Source of the DNA: a virus
Taxonomy: Duplodnaviria; Heunggongvirae; Uroviricota; Caudoviricetes
Length of the DNA stretch: 11,257 nt
Reading direction: 5' to 3' (one strand)
IMG/VR virus record: IMGVR_UViG_2734482772_000014
The position numbers and the translations under genes are program-made. Numbering within the stretch: position 1 is the first letter of the stretch; every line of letters begins with the position of its first letter. The notes beneath the pieces are model-generated. The model was not told the DNA's origin and searched no databases. It worked only from the letters and a program-made list of their open reading frames with translations. Of this stretch, positions 2,288 to 11,257 are shown in pieces.

Positions 2288-4729
2288 TCAATCATCACTC
2301 TGCCCGCTCTCCACACCGTAAGCACGGGGCATGAACTCCTCAGCCTTCTCGTTATAGCCAACGTTGGTTTGCGCTCTGCCGTTAATGCTTCTCGTCAGGT
2401 AGCTGGCTCGGTACTCTTTTGCTGCTGATTTTATGGCGCGTGAAAACTTATTGACGGAAAGCGGTTTACCCAAACCGTGATACTCCATAAACGCCAGATA
2501 AAGATGATAAAGATACGTCCTCGGCTCTGGCTGGCCTGCCCATGTACCTCCGCCCATCATCATGCCTTTGGGTTCGTTCATGAAAAAAAGCGCCGCACAC
2601 ATATCGACAACCGGATCCGTGCCGCGTTTAACCTCTAGCGCCTCCTGCGAATCGCGCTGCTCTAGTAATAGTTCCTTTGCTTTGTTCTGGTCGGAAAAGG
2701 TGGTTAGCAGGTGGCGGATAATCACCGGGATTTCTCGCCTGATTTTTGCTGTTAAATCCGGGTCTTTGTCTGCGTCTGATACCGGGTTATTAAACGGGAA
2801 TATCACGCGGCGGCGGGCAATGCCCCCGTTTCGCTCCGTGAATGTCATCGGCTCGTTATTGGTTGCCATAACAACGGCATTTATCACGGTTGTGAACTGC
2901 TTTTCATATTTCCCATCAATCTCTACCGGATCGCCGCCCGTAATGGCTTTAATCCCCGCACCCTCTCCAACATAGCGGGTCTGGTCAGGCATAATAATCA
3001 GGCTTTTTCCTACGAACTGCGCCCGTCCCCGTGCGGTGTCCAGCGTCATCATGCTACCGCTGGCGGTGTTGTGTTCACCTGCCAGCGTGGTTGCTATGCT
3101 GCTGAATACGGATTTTCCACTGCCGCCCTCGCCAGTTATCTCAATGAATAGCTGCCAGTCGTGACGCTTCGCCAGCACCATAAACAAGGCTGCTTTGATA
3201 CGCTCGGCCTTATGATGGTCGCCAGCCGTTGCATGATTCAGCCAACTGGTAAAATTGGGGGCGCTGGTGGTAATATTTTCCCCCGGCGCTGGCGGGGTGT
3301 AGGTGATCCCATTGTGGTTCATCAGCCAGTTACCCGGCGAATGGGCGGAAAACGTCTGCGTAGCGAGGTCATAAACGCCGTTATCAAAACCAATCAAATC
3401 CCCGCTCCGCTCACCAATTACCGGTATTTGCAGCTTCATGGTTGCGACAACCGATTTAATCCCCTTTTCGGTGTAGTGGGCTTCGTGCTCGTCGAAAATT
3501 GCCACCATAACCCTTTCTAATTCACTGTCTGGTAGCTTCTCCCATACGCCAGATTCGTAGCAGTAAACAGTGCCACTATCAGGGTTAACCGCCAACATAT
3601 CCCATCGAGATGAAAGCAACCGCGCTTTCTGGCTGGCTGCCATTTGTGCAATATCTCCGACTTCGGCTTTACGGCGGGATTTACCGCCCGCAATGGCCTG
3701 TAGTTGTGGTTTCACGGCTTCCCCCTGAATCTGGTACATCGAATCGTTAAACGCAGCCGTAGCGACTTCCAGCCCGTTTTGCTGGCGGTAGTCGTCCCAG
3801 TCGGCTTTGTAGTCTGTCGGCGGCAGCGCCACCCAGCCAGCCACGGATAAGGCGGCTTTCTCTGCGGCATCTTTGCCCGTGTTCGCCTGTTCGTCCTGTT
3901 GGTGGTCGTTATCTGCGGCAATGATAATTTGCGACTGCGGGTGTTTCCGGCGCATCACTTCGGCAACGGGTAGCAGGTTGCCCGCATCAATGGCGCACAC
4001 TGTCAGCGCGTCAGGGCGCATCAGGTGGACTGATAAAGTGGTTGCCAGCCCCTCGGCAATAATCACCGCCTGCGGCTGTTCCGGTGCGTTAACGGCGTGA
4101 TATGCCCCGCGCTTTGCTGAACCTGTCAGGAGTCGCTTCTCTCCCTGCGGTGTAATGGTTTGCGCTGCTGCCACTGCGCCGGATTCGTCCACCAGCTCCA
4201 GCAATAACGAACCATCCGGCATAACCGGATAGTTAAACCCGGTCAGCCCTTTTGATTGCAGGTAATCAGATTCTCCCTGTGTGGCACTCTGGCGCATTCC
4301 GGCATACAGACGGGCAAACGTAGCCCTTCGCTGCTCTGCATCCTCTGCTGCCTGTTTCTGGCGCTCCTGCTCACGCTGCTGGCGGTCAGCTTCCAGTTGC
4401 TCTCTTCTATGGCTCGCTGCCACCGGGTCGGTTTCCGCTGCCCGGTAATCAATACCCAGCACATCAGCGGCAAGCCTTGCCGCTTCTGTGGTGTCGCAGT
4501 TGTTCACCTTCTTAATCAGGTCTAAACCGTCACCAGCGCCACACTGATTGCAGATAAAGCTACCGCGCCCGTTGTCGTCGAATCTGAAACGGTCTTTTCC
4601 ACCACATGCAGGGCATGGAGAATGGCGGCGCGATGAATCAGGCACGTCGATAGACAATCCAGCCAGCACATAAGGCCAGCGCCCGGCGGCGGCACTGGTC
4701 ACTTCGCGGATAATGTCGATATTACGCAT
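2288..4729 (-). CDS. P4 alpha-like bifunctional primase-helicase (813 aa from ATG 4729)
   Basis: Zinc ribbon CPACGG...CNQCG; Toprim signatures (IIAEG..., IIIAADND); Walker A GEGGSGKS in the C-terminal helicase region. SD AGGGGG upstream of ATG 4729..4727, placed just after the stop of the 113-aa gene (4724..4722). Confidence 0.88.
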   Translation of the reverse strand: MRNIDIIREVTSAAAGRWPYVLAGLSIDVPDSSRRHSPCPACGGKDRFRFDDNGRGSFICNQCGAGDGLDLIKKVNNCDTTEAARLAADVLGIDYRAAETDPVAASHRREQLEADRQQREQERQKQAAEDAEQRRATFARLYAGMRQSATQGESDYLQSKGLTGFNYPVMPDGSLLLELVDESGAVAAAQTITPQGEKRLLTGSAKRGAYHAVNAPEQPQAVIIAEGLATTLSVHLMRPDALTVCAIDAGNLLPVAEVMRRKHPQSQIIIAADNDHQQDEQANTGKDAAEKAALSVAGWVALPPTDYKADWDDYRQQNGLEVATAAFNDSMYQIQGEAVKPQLQAIAGGKSRRKAEVGDIAQMAASQKARLLSSRWDMLAVNPDSGTVYCYESGVWEKLPDSELERVMVAIFDEHEAHYTEKGIKSVVATMKLQIPVIGERSGDLIGFDNGVYDLATQTFSAHSPGNWLMNHNGITYTPPAPGENITTSAPNFTSWLNHATAGDHHKAERIKAALFMVLAKRHDWQLFIEITGEGGSGKSVFSSIATTLAGEHNTASGSMMTLDTARGRAQFVGKSLIIMPDQTRYVGEGAGIKAITGGDPVEIDGKYEKQFTTVINAVVMATNNEPMTFTERNGGIARRRVIFPFNNPVSDADKDPDLTAKIRREIPVIIRHLLTTFSDQNKAKELLLEQRDSQEALEVKRGTDPVVDMCAALFFMNEPKGMMMGGGTWAGQPEPRTYLYHLYLAFMEYHGLGKPLSVNKFSRAIKSAAKEYRASYLTRSINGRAQTNVGYNEKAEEFMPRAYGVESGQSDD

Positions 4730-6446: not shown

Positions 6447-6631
6447 GTGCGCCCCCTGTGCGAATACGTCCGGCAAAAAAGCAAACGTGATCCCGCGCCA
6501 GAATGCGGCGGGCTTCCTGCTCGGTCTCTGCGGCGATATGGTGAATTTTGGCGGTAATTGTCGGGCAATCGCGGCGAACTGCGGCGATAATCCAGATAAA
6601 TTGCGGTTTTTGGGTAGGGGTAGTAGCCATT
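6439..6631 (-). CDS. Icd-like small protein (63 aa, MATTPTQKPQFIWIIAAVRR...)
   Basis: Strong SD AAGGAGG 7 nt upstream of ATG 6631..6629. Size and position (immediately after a C4/CI-type leader) match Icd of P1/P4-like elements. Family call from memory. Confidence 0.45.
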
Positions 6632-6654
6632 ATGGCAGCCTCCTTTGTGTTTAA

Positions 6655-6845
6655 GGAGTCACCGCATAAGGTTCCAATCTTAATAGTGGCGGTGACGTTA
6701 GCAGGGTTGGAACTACCGGACACAAAGGAAACCGGCCTACGCGAACGTAGCCCCACTAACGCCACCATAGATACAGTACGGGCAAGGCCGCTGATTTGAT
6801 GTGCGTGGTGATCGGACACAAAAAAAGACGCTTTCGGCGTCTGTG
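6655..6845 (-). ncRNA. Putative C4/CI-type antisense-RNA leader
   Basis: On the minus strand, two direct repeats UUUGUGUCCG(A/G)U (plus coords ~6811-6824 and ~6717-6730) are complementary to the Icd-like RBS ACACAAAGGAGG (plus 6641-6653). No protein-coding signal with an SD in this interval. Boundaries approximate. Confidence 0.3.
6819..6842 (-). terminator. Short hairpin + U7 (AGACGC-CGAAA-GCGUCU-UUUUUUU): terminator or leader structural element
   Basis: Minus-strand stem-loop followed by 7 U. The stem is only 6 bp, so it may instead be part of the antisense-RNA leader. Confidence 0.3.
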
Positions 6846-8876: not shown

Positions 8877-9842
8877 CTACCCCTTACCGTTGGCGGCAGC
8901 ACGTAAGTGTCTCAAAATCACATCTTCATTTGTGATTGCTAACGGTGGAATTTCGTCTTTATGAGCCACTATGCAATCCCGCCACTTCTCAGGGCTTATT
9001 TCTTTCTTTTTGCCACGGCATTCATCAGGATACTTTGACAAAAGATATATTGCAGATTTGAAAAGTTTTTCCCTGTTTTCAGCATGTCTCTCGGCATTAT
9101 GGTTGCTATTTTTTATTTCAGGTATTAGTTCCTGTTCTACCGCCATTTCGTATCGTTTTTTGCTCTTAGCTGCGTCAAAACTTCCATTAACCTTTGCGTC
9201 ATGAAGGTATTCTAAATCAGCCTTTGTTATATAAATGTTTTTATCTGACAGGCTACTCAGGTGAATTTGGGAACTTTGCATTTTGAATTTATATAGATCA
9301 CAATCAAATGTTGCTTCAAGTCGCACATATGGTTCTCCACATTCTTGTGAATGATAATGTCGTGTTGTTCTACCGCGTACACGCAACAATCCACATGCAA
9401 TTGATTTTCTTACAATAAAAGAGTTTTTGCCAATTTGTTCAAAAACATTTTTATTGTCGCTGTCTTCAACTGTCAGTGGTTTATGTGCATAAAATAGCTC
9501 ATAAGCACCGCTTTCAGATGCTGGGATATAAACTTCGTTGCTTGCGCTGGTAATAAGAAAAGGAAATGTAAACCTTACTTCTTCTGGGTACATAAGTAAT
9601 AAATCAGTTATAAAATTAGCATCTTTTTTGAAGTGGATGGTGGCATCAGATTCAATGAAATCAAGAAAGTCAGCATAGACATAAAAGTCTATATGTAGTC
9701 TATCTTTCCAATGCCATATATCATCAATTTCACAATTTAATAATTTTGATGCTCGCTCTATCGTGCAGTAGTCCAAAGGTGGAATACCTGATTCCTGCCA
9801 TAAATTTCTATGCACCACAGTTGTTTCATGAGAGTCGTTCAT
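8877..9842 (-). CDS. Orphan hypothetical protein (321 aa), AT-rich cargo between integrase and alpA
   Basis: SD AAGGTGA 7 nt upstream of ATG 9842..9840, stop TAG 8879..8877. Markedly AT-rich versus neighbours (by eye). No Walker A, HExxH or obvious hydrophobic TM stretch; C-terminal third is Lys/Glu-rich. Confidence 0.65.
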   Translation of the reverse strand: MNDSHETTVVHRNLWQESGIPPLDYCTIERASKLLNCEIDDIWHWKDRLHIDFYVYADFLDFIESDATIHFKKDANFITDLLLMYPEEVRFTFPFLITSASNEVYIPASESGAYELFYAHKPLTVEDSDNKNVFEQIGKNSFIVRKSIACGLLRVRGRTTRHYHSQECGEPYVRLEATFDCDLYKFKMQSSQIHLSSLSDKNIYITKADLEYLHDAKVNGSFDAAKSKKRYEMAVEQELIPEIKNSNHNAERHAENREKLFKSAIYLLSKYPDECRGKKKEISPEKWRDCIVAHKDEIPPLAITNEDVILRHLRAAANGKG

Positions 9843-9875
9843 TGCGTCACCTTTTACGCTGCGCCTTATTTTGTG

Positions 9876-9930
9876 ATTGAGCCAGGCGGTAAGGCTTCCC
9901 GCTTTTCGCCCCGTCGAGCTAGGCTCAATC
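9876..9930. repeat. Inverted repeat GATTGAGCC...GGCTCAATC in the int-cargo intergenic region
   Basis: 9-bp arms at 9876-9884 and 9922-9930 with a GC-rich ~37-bp spacer; no U-tract follows on the minus strand. Confidence 0.5.
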
Positions 9931-9937
9931 TATTCAG

Positions 9938-11197
9938 TTAGTTCGCCCTTCTGAGAGGCGTTACGTTGTAGTCTTTTCCGCTTTCCAGTGCCACCAGCAG
10001 ATCAGCCCACTGTGCCAGTGCTGCTTTACGCTCATCAAAATACTGATGGCGGTTATAAATCCCCTCTACGCCCTTAATGCGATGATTGAGGCATCGTTCC
10101 GCCACGACAGGATCAACACCCAACGCTGCTAAATGAGTACGTGCGGTGCGTCGGAAGTCGTGAATCGTGAAATTAGGCACATCCGGCATTTCGGCGCGAA
10201 CCTTAGCCAGTGCTACGGGCAAAGTGCTTTCCTGAATATGTGGGATCATTCTGTTTTGCATCTTCCTGGCTGGAAGCACCCATGCGCTATTACATGAAAA
10301 GGTGTGTAGCTCTCTCAACCATTCAACGGCTGGGGAAGGTAGAGGTATATCAATAGGGTCTCCGTTTTTGCTGCGTTCTTCCGGCAAATGCCATACCGCA
10401 CCATCTAAATCAAACTCTTCCCATCGTGCGGCGCATAACTCCATCTTACGAACGCATAGTGCCAGCAATAGCTTAAATGTCAGTTCGTTCTGGCGGCTGA
10501 ATCCTTTTGCGGTGCGCATAGCCTCGAATAGCCTGATAAGCTCATCGCGAGTTAGCCAACGGTCGCGGGAAACCTCTTTACCACCAGCATCAGATACTTC
10601 AAACGCTGAACAAGGGTTTATCTCCAGAGCGTGGCGTTTTATCCCGTAGTCAAAGATACGGCGTGTCCAGCGTAATACATCTGTTGCTATCGTTGGTGCT
10701 CCTCGGTCAACGATACCTTTCAACATGTCGTCAATGTGGCGTGGCTTAACGTCCTCTACCTTCATATGCCCAATGCAGGGGTTAATATCCTTATCAATTC
10801 TCCGGCGAAGGATATCGGGATGTTTCCATCTCGGAAGTATCTGGCGCTCGAAGTATTCGGAGGCCAGATCTGAAACACGCATGGCGTTTTTCTCAGCCTC
10901 CATTTTTGCCAGTGCTTCAGCTTTTCGTTCCTGTTTCTCTGCTGCTACGTCATAGCCAAGAGCAACTCTGGCTGACAGCTCTTTGGCTGTCTCTCTGGCC
11001 TTTGATAGTGATAGCTCGCTATACGAACCAATTAGCATGGCGCGGGACTTCCCTGCGAGTTTATAGCGGAATCTCCATGTGGGGGTTTTGTCGGCTTCAC
11101 GGTAACGTAGGTATAAACCGTTACCGTCTGCCCGCCCCTCGAATCGCTCTCCGCTCTTAATCCATGCGCGGATCTGCATGTCTGTTAGTTTTGGCAT
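9938..11197 (-). CDS. int: P4-type tyrosine integrase (419 aa from ATG 11197)
   Basis: N-terminus MPKLTD...GLYLRY...WRFRYKLAGK...LIGSY is characteristic of P4-family integrases; C-terminal HDFRRTARTHL (HxxR) and GIYNRHQYFDERK (catalytic Tyr region). The ORF stays open to the window edge (11257), but the MPKLTD start is the conserved one. Confidence 0.88.
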   Translation of the reverse strand: MPKLTDMQIRAWIKSGERFEGRADGNGLYLRYREADKTPTWRFRYKLAGKSRAMLIGSYSELSLSKARETAKELSARVALGYDVAAEKQERKAEALAKMEAEKNAMRVSDLASEYFERQILPRWKHPDILRRRIDKDINPCIGHMKVEDVKPRHIDDMLKGIVDRGAPTIATDVLRWTRRIFDYGIKRHALEINPCSAFEVSDAGGKEVSRDRWLTRDELIRLFEAMRTAKGFSRQNELTFKLLLALCVRKMELCAARWEEFDLDGAVWHLPEERSKNGDPIDIPLPSPAVEWLRELHTFSCNSAWVLPARKMQNRMIPHIQESTLPVALAKVRAEMPDVPNFTIHDFRRTARTHLAALGVDPVVAERCLNHRIKGVEGIYNRHQYFDERKAALAQWADLLVALESGKDYNVTPLRRAN

Positions 11198-11227
11198 TTT
11201 GCGAATATCCAAACTTTGAATAGGGGG

Positions 11228-11251
11228 TGTACCCAAAGCAATGTACCCAAA
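11228..11251. repeat. Direct repeats TGTACCCAAA x2 upstream of int
   Basis: Copies at 11228-11237 and 11242-11251 (14-bp period), within 50 bp of the int start. Candidate Int arm-type sites or int promoter operator. Confidence 0.4.
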
Positions 11252-11257
11252 CCTCAT

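Follow-up and report, generated by a model that had tools for sequence, protein, structure and literature searches.

What are the two short repeats that stand directly upstream of an integrase gene, int, at the very end of a viral DNA stretch, and which protein reads them? The window, by which we mean the whole stretch of 11,257 nucleotides that was analyzed, closes with ...GGGGGTGTACCCAAAGCAATGTACCCAAACCTCAT, and its plus strand contains exactly two copies of TGTACCCAAA. The copies start 14 nt from each other with a 4-nt gap (GCAA) between them, and they lie 31-54 nt upstream of the int ATG (11195-11197, a minus-strand gene). A GGGGG run at 11223-11227 directly precedes the first copy. An earlier note, made from the letters alone, had correctly picked out both 10-bp repeats and the adjoining G5 tract, and had read them as arm-type or operator sites of a P4-family integrase with an attachment site just outside the window, typically in a tRNA gene.

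Taken by itself, the repeat is statistically weak. When the window is shuffled with its dinucleotides preserved, 20% of the shuffles contain an exact, non-overlapping 10-mer repeat within 30 nt (mean of 0.30 per shuffle), so significance can come only from context. That context consists of further copies past the window and at the opposite end of the element, positions that are conserved in dozens of species, and co-variation with the integrase. On these comparative data, the arm-site half of the earlier reading emerges as the best explanation: the two TGTACCCAAA copies are very probably arm-type sites for the N-terminal domain of the adjacent P4-type integrase.

The element and its target gene

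The last 1.46 kb of the window is 100% identical to Escherichia coli CFS3292 (NZ_CP026935.2). We refer to the CFS3292 sequence that extends beyond the window as L001, in which a window position equals the L001 position minus 4201. The CFS3292 island is placed between dinD and yicC, whose flanks are ~12.5 kb apart. In K-12, the empty site has the same two neighbors and reads ...GGCGTTACGAG / TTATTCGATGTTCTGAATCTGCTCGCGC, with the slash at the point of insertion. Comparison with this empty site puts both junctions in the 3′ end of yicC, which in K-12 is TTATTCGATGTTCTGAATCTG. The yicC-side junction falls 132-154 bp past base 11257, so the boundary does lie just beyond the window, as the earlier note had anticipated, and the duplicated attachment core that it suggested looking for there exists, but as the end of yicC. 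The proposed tRNA gene did not materialize: across 29 kb spanning the element, ARAGORN found no tRNA, and no core of the P4-like kind, a tRNA 3′ end, is present. Instead, the final ~21-23 nt of a protein gene, yicC, form the attachment core. Because the core copies these nucleotides, integration rebuilds the final codons and stop of yicC. Empty and occupied sites alike encode the YicC terminus ...QIQNIE followed by the stop codon, with the reading frame restored, and the element supplies a terminator hairpin of its own.

The core duplication is clearest in a sister element from strain Z1323 (L003), where it forms a perfect 23-bp direct repeat, AGCAGATTCAGAATATTGAATAA. The far copy is full length in L003 (6234-6256), 2 bp shorter in L001 (3131-3150) and in strain VE-T2 (L085, ~890-915), and 6 bp shorter in strain 165 (L004, ~2045-2070). 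With far-end copies that vary in length among strains, the crossover is assigned to the 21-23-bp identity block as a whole and not to a point within it. The length variation could represent attachment-site drift, or decay that impairs excision; since its far core is 2 bp shorter than that of Z1323, the CFS3292 copy may no longer excise. The 2-bp-shorter form of CFS3292 and VE-T2 also creates a palindrome, ATTCAATATTGAAT. Among 79 species-representative loci, which were taken with a 10-kb flank that most elements exceed in length, the core duplicate is seen only in L003, L056 and L060; the far ends of L004 and L085 were located by hand.

Such islands recur at this site. A query running from int to yicC is matched over at least 80% of its length in 510 of 5426 complete E. 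coli genomes (~9%), and int adjoins yicC in every fetched or listed example of these matches. Strain 755 has two integrase matches in its genome, yet a single element at yicC. Knowing the target allows the true element boundary to be drawn at the yicC 3′ end and not at a tRNA gene, which is useful for island annotation.

The genes present include int, AlpA, AntA, Ash, and a Zn-ribbon/Toprim/D5 primase, accompanied by iteron-like repeats. By this content the island looks phage-satellite-like, with a gene set that resembles those of phage-inducible chromosomal islands (PICIs). Between int and alpA, a 321-aa ORF (8877-9842, minus strand) has no Pfam match and a G+C content of 35-41%, compared to 50-59% in most of the remaining window. 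Strain Z1323 has a different protein of 216 aa in its position, which is probably a variable cargo or defense slot. Just downstream of the primase gene, positions 2020-2272 are dense in GTAGGGATAA / TTATCCCTAC repeats in both orientations and include 80-nt inverted arms (2051-2130 and 2160-2239); this array is probably a replication origin whose iterons resemble the P4 ori/crr repeats. A 95-nt direct repeat with 89% identity occurs at 252-346, the perC 5′ end, and at 1193-1287, where it spans the 3′ end of the 1235-1669 ORF and lies 25 nt upstream of the 496-1167 ORF, possibly as a promoter or leader that was duplicated. Three structured RNAs also score above their Rfam gathering thresholds (Table 1).

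Six probable arm sites and their arrangement in attP

Although the earlier note was right that the window contains two copies on the same strand, they are not a self-contained direct-repeat pair. They are the int-proximal, inverted members of a larger set. Past the end of the window the sequence continues ...CCTCATTGGGTACACCTTTGTGTACACCATAATC, and inverted copies, TTGGGTACACC and TTGTGTACACC, follow directly. The far end of the element, where the earlier note had thought to search for additional copies, holds two in GGTACACCCTTGTGTACAC. Altogether, the set comprises six GTGTAC(C/A)CAA-like sites, which we call A to F: four of them precede int and the other two stand at the island's far end, with C and D inverted relative to A, B, E and F (Table 1). 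In the record NZ_CP026935.2, the int-proximal arm is found at 133550-133660 and the far arm at about 121360-121410. In CFS3292, sites A, E and F are off consensus (ACAA, ACAA and CCTA), and in a second E. coli element of that class site C reads TGTACACAAA.

We ranked these sites using a position matrix built from the sites of other species, with E. coli excluded, and scanned both strands of the 29-kb L001. Sites D, A, B, E and C take the top five places among ~59,000 positions, and F comes ninth. Site D is the best match of all (23.2 bits), while site C is the fifth-best. Two moderate matches lie inside the element, at 9581-9595 on the minus strand (TTATGTACCCAGAAG, 12.6 bits) and at 2473-2487 on the plus strand (CGGTTTACCCAAACC, 12.5 bits), and both may be due to chance; P4 too has an annotated arm repeat inside int.

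Two further stretches of the near arm recur among relatives. The leader between site D and the int start resembles a block, TATTCAAnGTTnnGGTATTCGCAA, that is common to many related loci and occurs in three of the four site classes. To judge from its sequence, the GGA/AGG in this leader could act as a weak ribosome-binding site. The second block, GCTATCATAAAGACGCAACAAAGCGCATGATTA (L001 15486-15525), sits between the element-borne yicC terminator and site A; it hardly varies among most of the Enterobacterales relatives, and three of the four arm classes share it. It might be bound by IHF or by the directionality factor, or it might be a promoter. For IHF, comparison by eye gave only a two-mismatch match to WATCAANNNNTTR, and we do not claim such a site. 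An Rfam search returned no family over the repeat region.

The arrangement of the two arms predicts an order that cannot occur while the element is integrated, namely the E/F tandem pair followed after 65-95 nt by TAAGCYATCAG. Three metagenome contigs match this pattern, each reading from the far arm through the core to the near arm (A-D) and int. The arms are joined through CAGATCCAGAATATCGAATAA in two of the contigs and through CATGTTCAGAATATCGAATAA in the third, and the fetched stretches of all three contain no yicC or dinD match. These contigs are the predicted attP, in a circular, concatemeric or possibly tandem form. They belong to the ATAA-class sister element, not to the exact element of the window, and they confirm the element boundaries for that sister class. 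Viral contigs scanned with attP-junction patterns yielded none. In CFS3292, the junction of the attP circle would read ...AACAGATTCAATATTGA / GTAAGCTATCAG..., with the slash at the joint.

Table 1. Features of the int-proximal region, the element ends and the structured RNAs. Positions are those of the window unless a locus is named.
Feature	Position	Strand	Description
AlpA-family helix-turn-helix protein, 67 aa	8559-8762	-	Pfam Phage_AlpA, E 1.9e-8
int, 419-aa tyrosine integrase	9938-11197	-	arm-binding N-domain, central domain, catalytic domain
Specificity patch, int codons 15-55	11033-11155	-	includes hairpin LYLRYREADKTPTW, aa 28-41
Non-coding leader, site D to int start	11198-11224	-	int-sense CCCCCTATTCAAAGTTTGGATATTCGCAAA
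Site D, nearest int	11225-11239	+	core TGTACCCAAA at 11228-11237; GGG of the 5′ flank is part of the G5 tract
Site C, second inverted candidate arm site	11240-11253	+	core TGTACCCAAA at 11242-11251
Sites A and B	L001 15459-15485	int-sense forward	A GTGTACACAAAG, B GTGTACCCAATG; B 12 nt after A
Sites E and F, tandem	~75 nt inside far junction		CCGTGTACACAAGGGTGTACCTACTG
yicC-side junction	L001 ~15590-15612		132-154 bp past window end; reads GCTTACTCGATATTCTGAATCTG
dinD-side junction	L001 ~3136		reads TTATTCAATATTGAATCTG
Arm-site and N-domain cassette	11033-11257 plus L001 15459-15485		compare L004 19180-19480 and L085 17180-17485
C4 antisense RNA	6470-6557	-	Rfam, 81 bits, above gathering score
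isrK Hfq-binding RNA	6606-6682	-	Rfam, 71 bits, above gathering score
int-alpA RNA	9863-9929	-	Rfam, 61 bits, above gathering score; just downstream of int stop

Co-variation of the sites with the arm-binding domain

The product of int has Pfam matches to Arm-DNA-bind_3 (aa 4-90, E 4.5e-20), Phage_int_M and Phage_integrase. Over its first 90 residues, the protein matches PDB entries 3jtz/3rmp and 3ju0 (E 5e-7 and 2e-6 for the 3jtz and 3ju0 chains), which were deposited as 'Integrase / CP4-like integrase' and 'Phage integrase'. A single-sequence AlphaFold model of the N-domain, of low confidence (pLDDT 58) and good for a rough strand/helix order, places strands at residues 27-33 and 41-47 on either side of a variable loop.

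To follow the sites among relatives, we drew on a scan of one genome per species, which gave 79 loci; 49 were analyzed for int spacing and 47 for co-variation of site and N-domain. In 41 of the 49, a group that includes Enterobacterales, Aeromonas, Tolumonas, Zobellella, Vogesella, Azonexus and Propionivibrio, the yicC stop is followed by the int start at a distance of 170-194 nt. GTAC- or GCAC-centered sites are found at matching positions in all related loci. The position of site D is filled in every one of the 47, and a GTAC/GCAC-centered site C is found in 36 of them, with a more degenerate sequence than site D.

The three bases that follow G(T/C)AC in site D fit the class of the integrase N-domain in 45 of the 47 loci. 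Integrases with the hairpin L-R-x-R-(E/A)-x-D (R31) are paired with GTAC-CCA at site D in 20 of 20 cases, those with L-S-Y-R-E-N-Y-Q (S31) with GTAC-ACC in 12 of 12, and those with (I/L)-C-x-P-K-N-Y (C31/P33) with GTAC-ATA in 5 of 5. For L-C-x-R-(E/K)-x-F...K (C31/R33), the partner is GTAC-CAA in 8 of 10, the two exceptions being Azonexus elements with GTGCACCCCT. In the 47 loci, site sequence tracks Int residues ~29-41, and neither the catalytic domain nor AlpA.

The sharpest comparison comes from within E. coli. The Int of the window and that of strain 165 are identical over aa 56-419 and differ at 15 residues, of which 13 fall in aa 15-40 and the remaining two are aa 51 and 55; part of the patch reads LRYREADKTPT in CFS3292 and ICYPKNYTVPF in strain 165. 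The window Int is paired with TGTACCCAAA-type sites and the strain 165 Int with TGTACATAAA-type sites, and the switch from CCAA/ACAA-type to ATAA-type is concerted at A-D and at E/F, 12 kb away. Both types are well represented, with a CCAA-class arm in 64 complete E. coli genomes and an ATAA-class arm in 266. When N-domain class is plotted on a neighbor-joining tree of the catalytic domain, at least 17 changes are needed, and sister pairs such as L021/L023 and L019/L025 differ in class.

The unit that moves can be delimited. In strain VE-T2, an ATAA-class terminator flank is joined to CCAA-class sites and N-domain, and this mosaic implies that the exchanged block begins immediately beyond site A and stops near codon 60. 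A cassette of ~250 bp, made up of sites A-D and int codons ~1-60, is swapped between otherwise near-identical E. coli elements (Table 1). Because the patch codons and sites A-D are contiguous (~250 bp), with E/F adjacent to them in the circle, the co-variation could in part be co-inheritance. Co-inheritance, however, leaves unexplained why four to six separate copies adopt one new motif.

From the sequence patterns we tentatively suggest a broader reading, which seems plausible to us but somewhat short of probable: the yicC integrases may have undergone repeated exchange of a cassette of arm sites and the beta-hairpin patch at aa ~15-55, with an unchanged catalytic domain, giving at least four mutually orthogonal arm-specificity groups (GTAC-CCAA, -ACCT, -ATAA and -CAAA) that share one target. 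The co-variation itself is plain from the sequences. If this reading is true, elements that compete for one attB would be orthogonal in intasome assembly, excision control and int autoregulation, and the groups would represent a natural residue-to-base recognition code for the Arm-DNA-bind_3 (DUF4102) domain. Near-identical integrases with switched patches and sites offer a variant set for studying how this domain reads DNA, and the same set allows testing whether arm specificity prevents interference between co-targeting elements.

Could some other protein, or none, account for the sites? Given their position directly upstream of int, they might be operators for the AlpA-family protein, another element repressor or a host factor and not be read by the integrase at all, and the directionality factors Vis of P4 and TorI of KplE1 do bind a comparable region (PMC2951348). 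AlpA, however, is the identical protein (WP_001090781.1) in elements with CCAA-type and ATAA-type sites, so it is not the reader of the repeats. A host factor cannot account for motifs that differ within E. coli, whereas the Int N-domain patch fits the motif in 45 of 47 loci and the copies occupy both arms in the layout of the P4 arm repeats. We consider operators of this kind improbable. Still further down the scale is a functionless chance repeat, which the 20% of shuffled windows with a comparable 10-mer repeat would allow. It is very hard to square with positions conserved in 47 loci from Enterobacterales to Betaproteobacteria, with copies that change in concert, or with more copies at the far end and top ranks for a matrix derived across species.

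The geometry of the pair raises two other readings. As a 9-bp inverted repeat with a 6-nt spacer, TGTACCCAAAcctcaTTGGGTACA resembles a recombinase core, and a simple terminator scan flags it on the plus strand, so that it might be a crossover site or a hairpin such as a terminator. But the junctions, as placed by comparison with the empty site, fall within yicC at a distance of 130-150 bp, and the attP-form contigs join their arms at the yicC-like core and not at TGTACCCAAAcctcaTTGGGTACA, whose motif recurs as tandem direct copies in both arms. As for a terminator, it would have a stem with only 4 G-C pairs and a poor T-run, and no plus-strand gene ends there; the hairpin was flagged because the two sites are inverted. 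This reading is quite unlikely. We give scarcely any weight to the last alternative, that the repeat is coding sequence in an N-terminal extension of int from an ATG at 11255-11257. The ORF list does contain an ATG-started frame over 9938-11257, and the NCBI pipeline annotates a 439-aa int in strain VE-T2 (L085 17399-17458 runs across C and D) compared to 419 aa in CFS3292. In most relatives, though, stops close the extension or it falls out of frame, and 22 of 49 loci lack any in-frame start farther upstream. Ahead of int, the frame is shifted by a 2-nt indel in ATAA-class E. coli elements and by a 10-bp insertion in L086, an E. coli element that shares the class of the window. All relatives begin M(P/A/G)KLTD (MPKLTD in the window), and the extension from 11255-11257 is not conserved. 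The comparison also exposes an annotation error, in which the int ORF has been extended over the arm sites in some genomes.

A model for Int at the proposed arm sites and its relation to known systems

With the arm-site reading preferred over these alternatives, the excised element would carry, in order, E and F, ~75 nt, the core, ~110 nt, A and B, C and D, 30 nt, and int. We infer that Int would physically bind the arm sites and that recombination would require them. In such a model, Int N-domains on arms A-F and C-terminal domains on the yicC-like core would build a recombination complex that bridges arm and core and lets the element enter the yicC 3′ end or leave it. Excision would additionally involve the AlpA-family protein, which is probably an excision or directionality factor as well as a regulator and hence the probable source of directionality.

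The location of the inverted pair may have a second consequence. Because C and D are 31-54 nt upstream of the int start, bound Int would probably also limit int transcription. Sites A-D span -31 to -92, where an int promoter would have to be. In the 190 nt that separate the yicC stop from int, a scan for the sigma-70 consensus found no promoter, and by eye only poor hexamers are present there. Argued by analogy with P4 and KplE1, autoregulation of Int through C and D is about as apt to hold as to fail.

Arm-type sites beside a P4-type int are textbook, and yicC is known as a target gene too. One of the closest models is P4, whose attP targets a tRNA-Leu gene and whose Int reportedly regulates its own expression negatively. 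The P4 record (NC_001609) annotates five 'attP arm sequence repeat' features with the motif TTGGGGGCA(Y)A. In the int sense, two tandem repeats (4174-4151) are followed by 54 nt, the core (4097-4078), 112 nt, two more tandem repeats (3965-3942) and an inverted one (3915-3926). Both elements have an Arm-DNA-bind_3 integrase and the same succession of a tandem pair with 12-bp spacing, core, ~110 nt, tandem pair and inverted site near int. Both also transcribe int away from attP and have a small AlpA/Vis-type regulator downstream. They differ in the motif, which is GTGTAC(C/A)CAA in the CFS3292 element and TTGGGGGCA(Y)A in P4, and in the inverted sites, of which P4 has one over the int ATG while the CFS3292 element has two at -31 to -54. 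The P4 record also marks the attP core. The target of the CFS3292 element is the yicC 3′ end.

The lambda integrase recognizes the arm-type sites P1, P2 and P′1-P′3; its attB is intergenic, and sites for IHF, Xis and Fis have been mapped. The predicted Int of the yicC element would resemble it as a heterobivalent integrase with its N-domain on an arm motif and another motif at the core, and with sites on both sides in mixed orientations. The N-domain of lambda Int is of another family, and the number and spacing of its sites are different.

In KplE1, the intS promoter overlaps with arm-type IntS sites and with sites for TorI (Panis et al. 2010, PMC2951348). Shared features are an int beside the attachment junction and arm-type Int sites upstream of it, which in KplE1 go with negative autoregulation (PMC2951348). 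KplE1 differs in that its promoter, transcription starts and repression were measured, while the CFS3292 element has no predictable promoter, and in being inserted at the argW tRNA gene.

The target itself is shared with other mobile elements. A passage of Durand et al. 2021 (PMC8409611) gives the yicC 3′ end as the target of MGIVflInd1 and SGI1-like IEs, and a passage of a preprint places reference PICIs in yicC (bioRxiv 10.1101/2022.07.18.500453). As described in those passages, the yicC-targeting IEs and PICIs have in common with our element the yicC 3′ end and an int at the junction, and the int-alpA-primase set is PICI-like. The SGI1-like elements, again as described there, are larger at 23-37 kb, are mobilized by conjugation and carry other cargo. 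The passages on yicC elements in the two sources make no mention of arm sites.

The coupling of arm sites to the N-domain has a precedent in Cluster K mycobacteriophages, in which N-terminal substitutions in related integrases go with an altered arm-site consensus (Pope et al. 2011, PMC3203893). Since this was noted earlier, the principle of arm-site/N-domain co-variation is not new. The Cluster K case involves one or two bases, two residues and four phages, whereas the yicC integrases fall into four to five classes distinguished by a 15-residue cluster and 3-4 bases in many genera. What may be new is the existence of four to five arm classes over so many genera, together with the sharp boundaries of the cassette.
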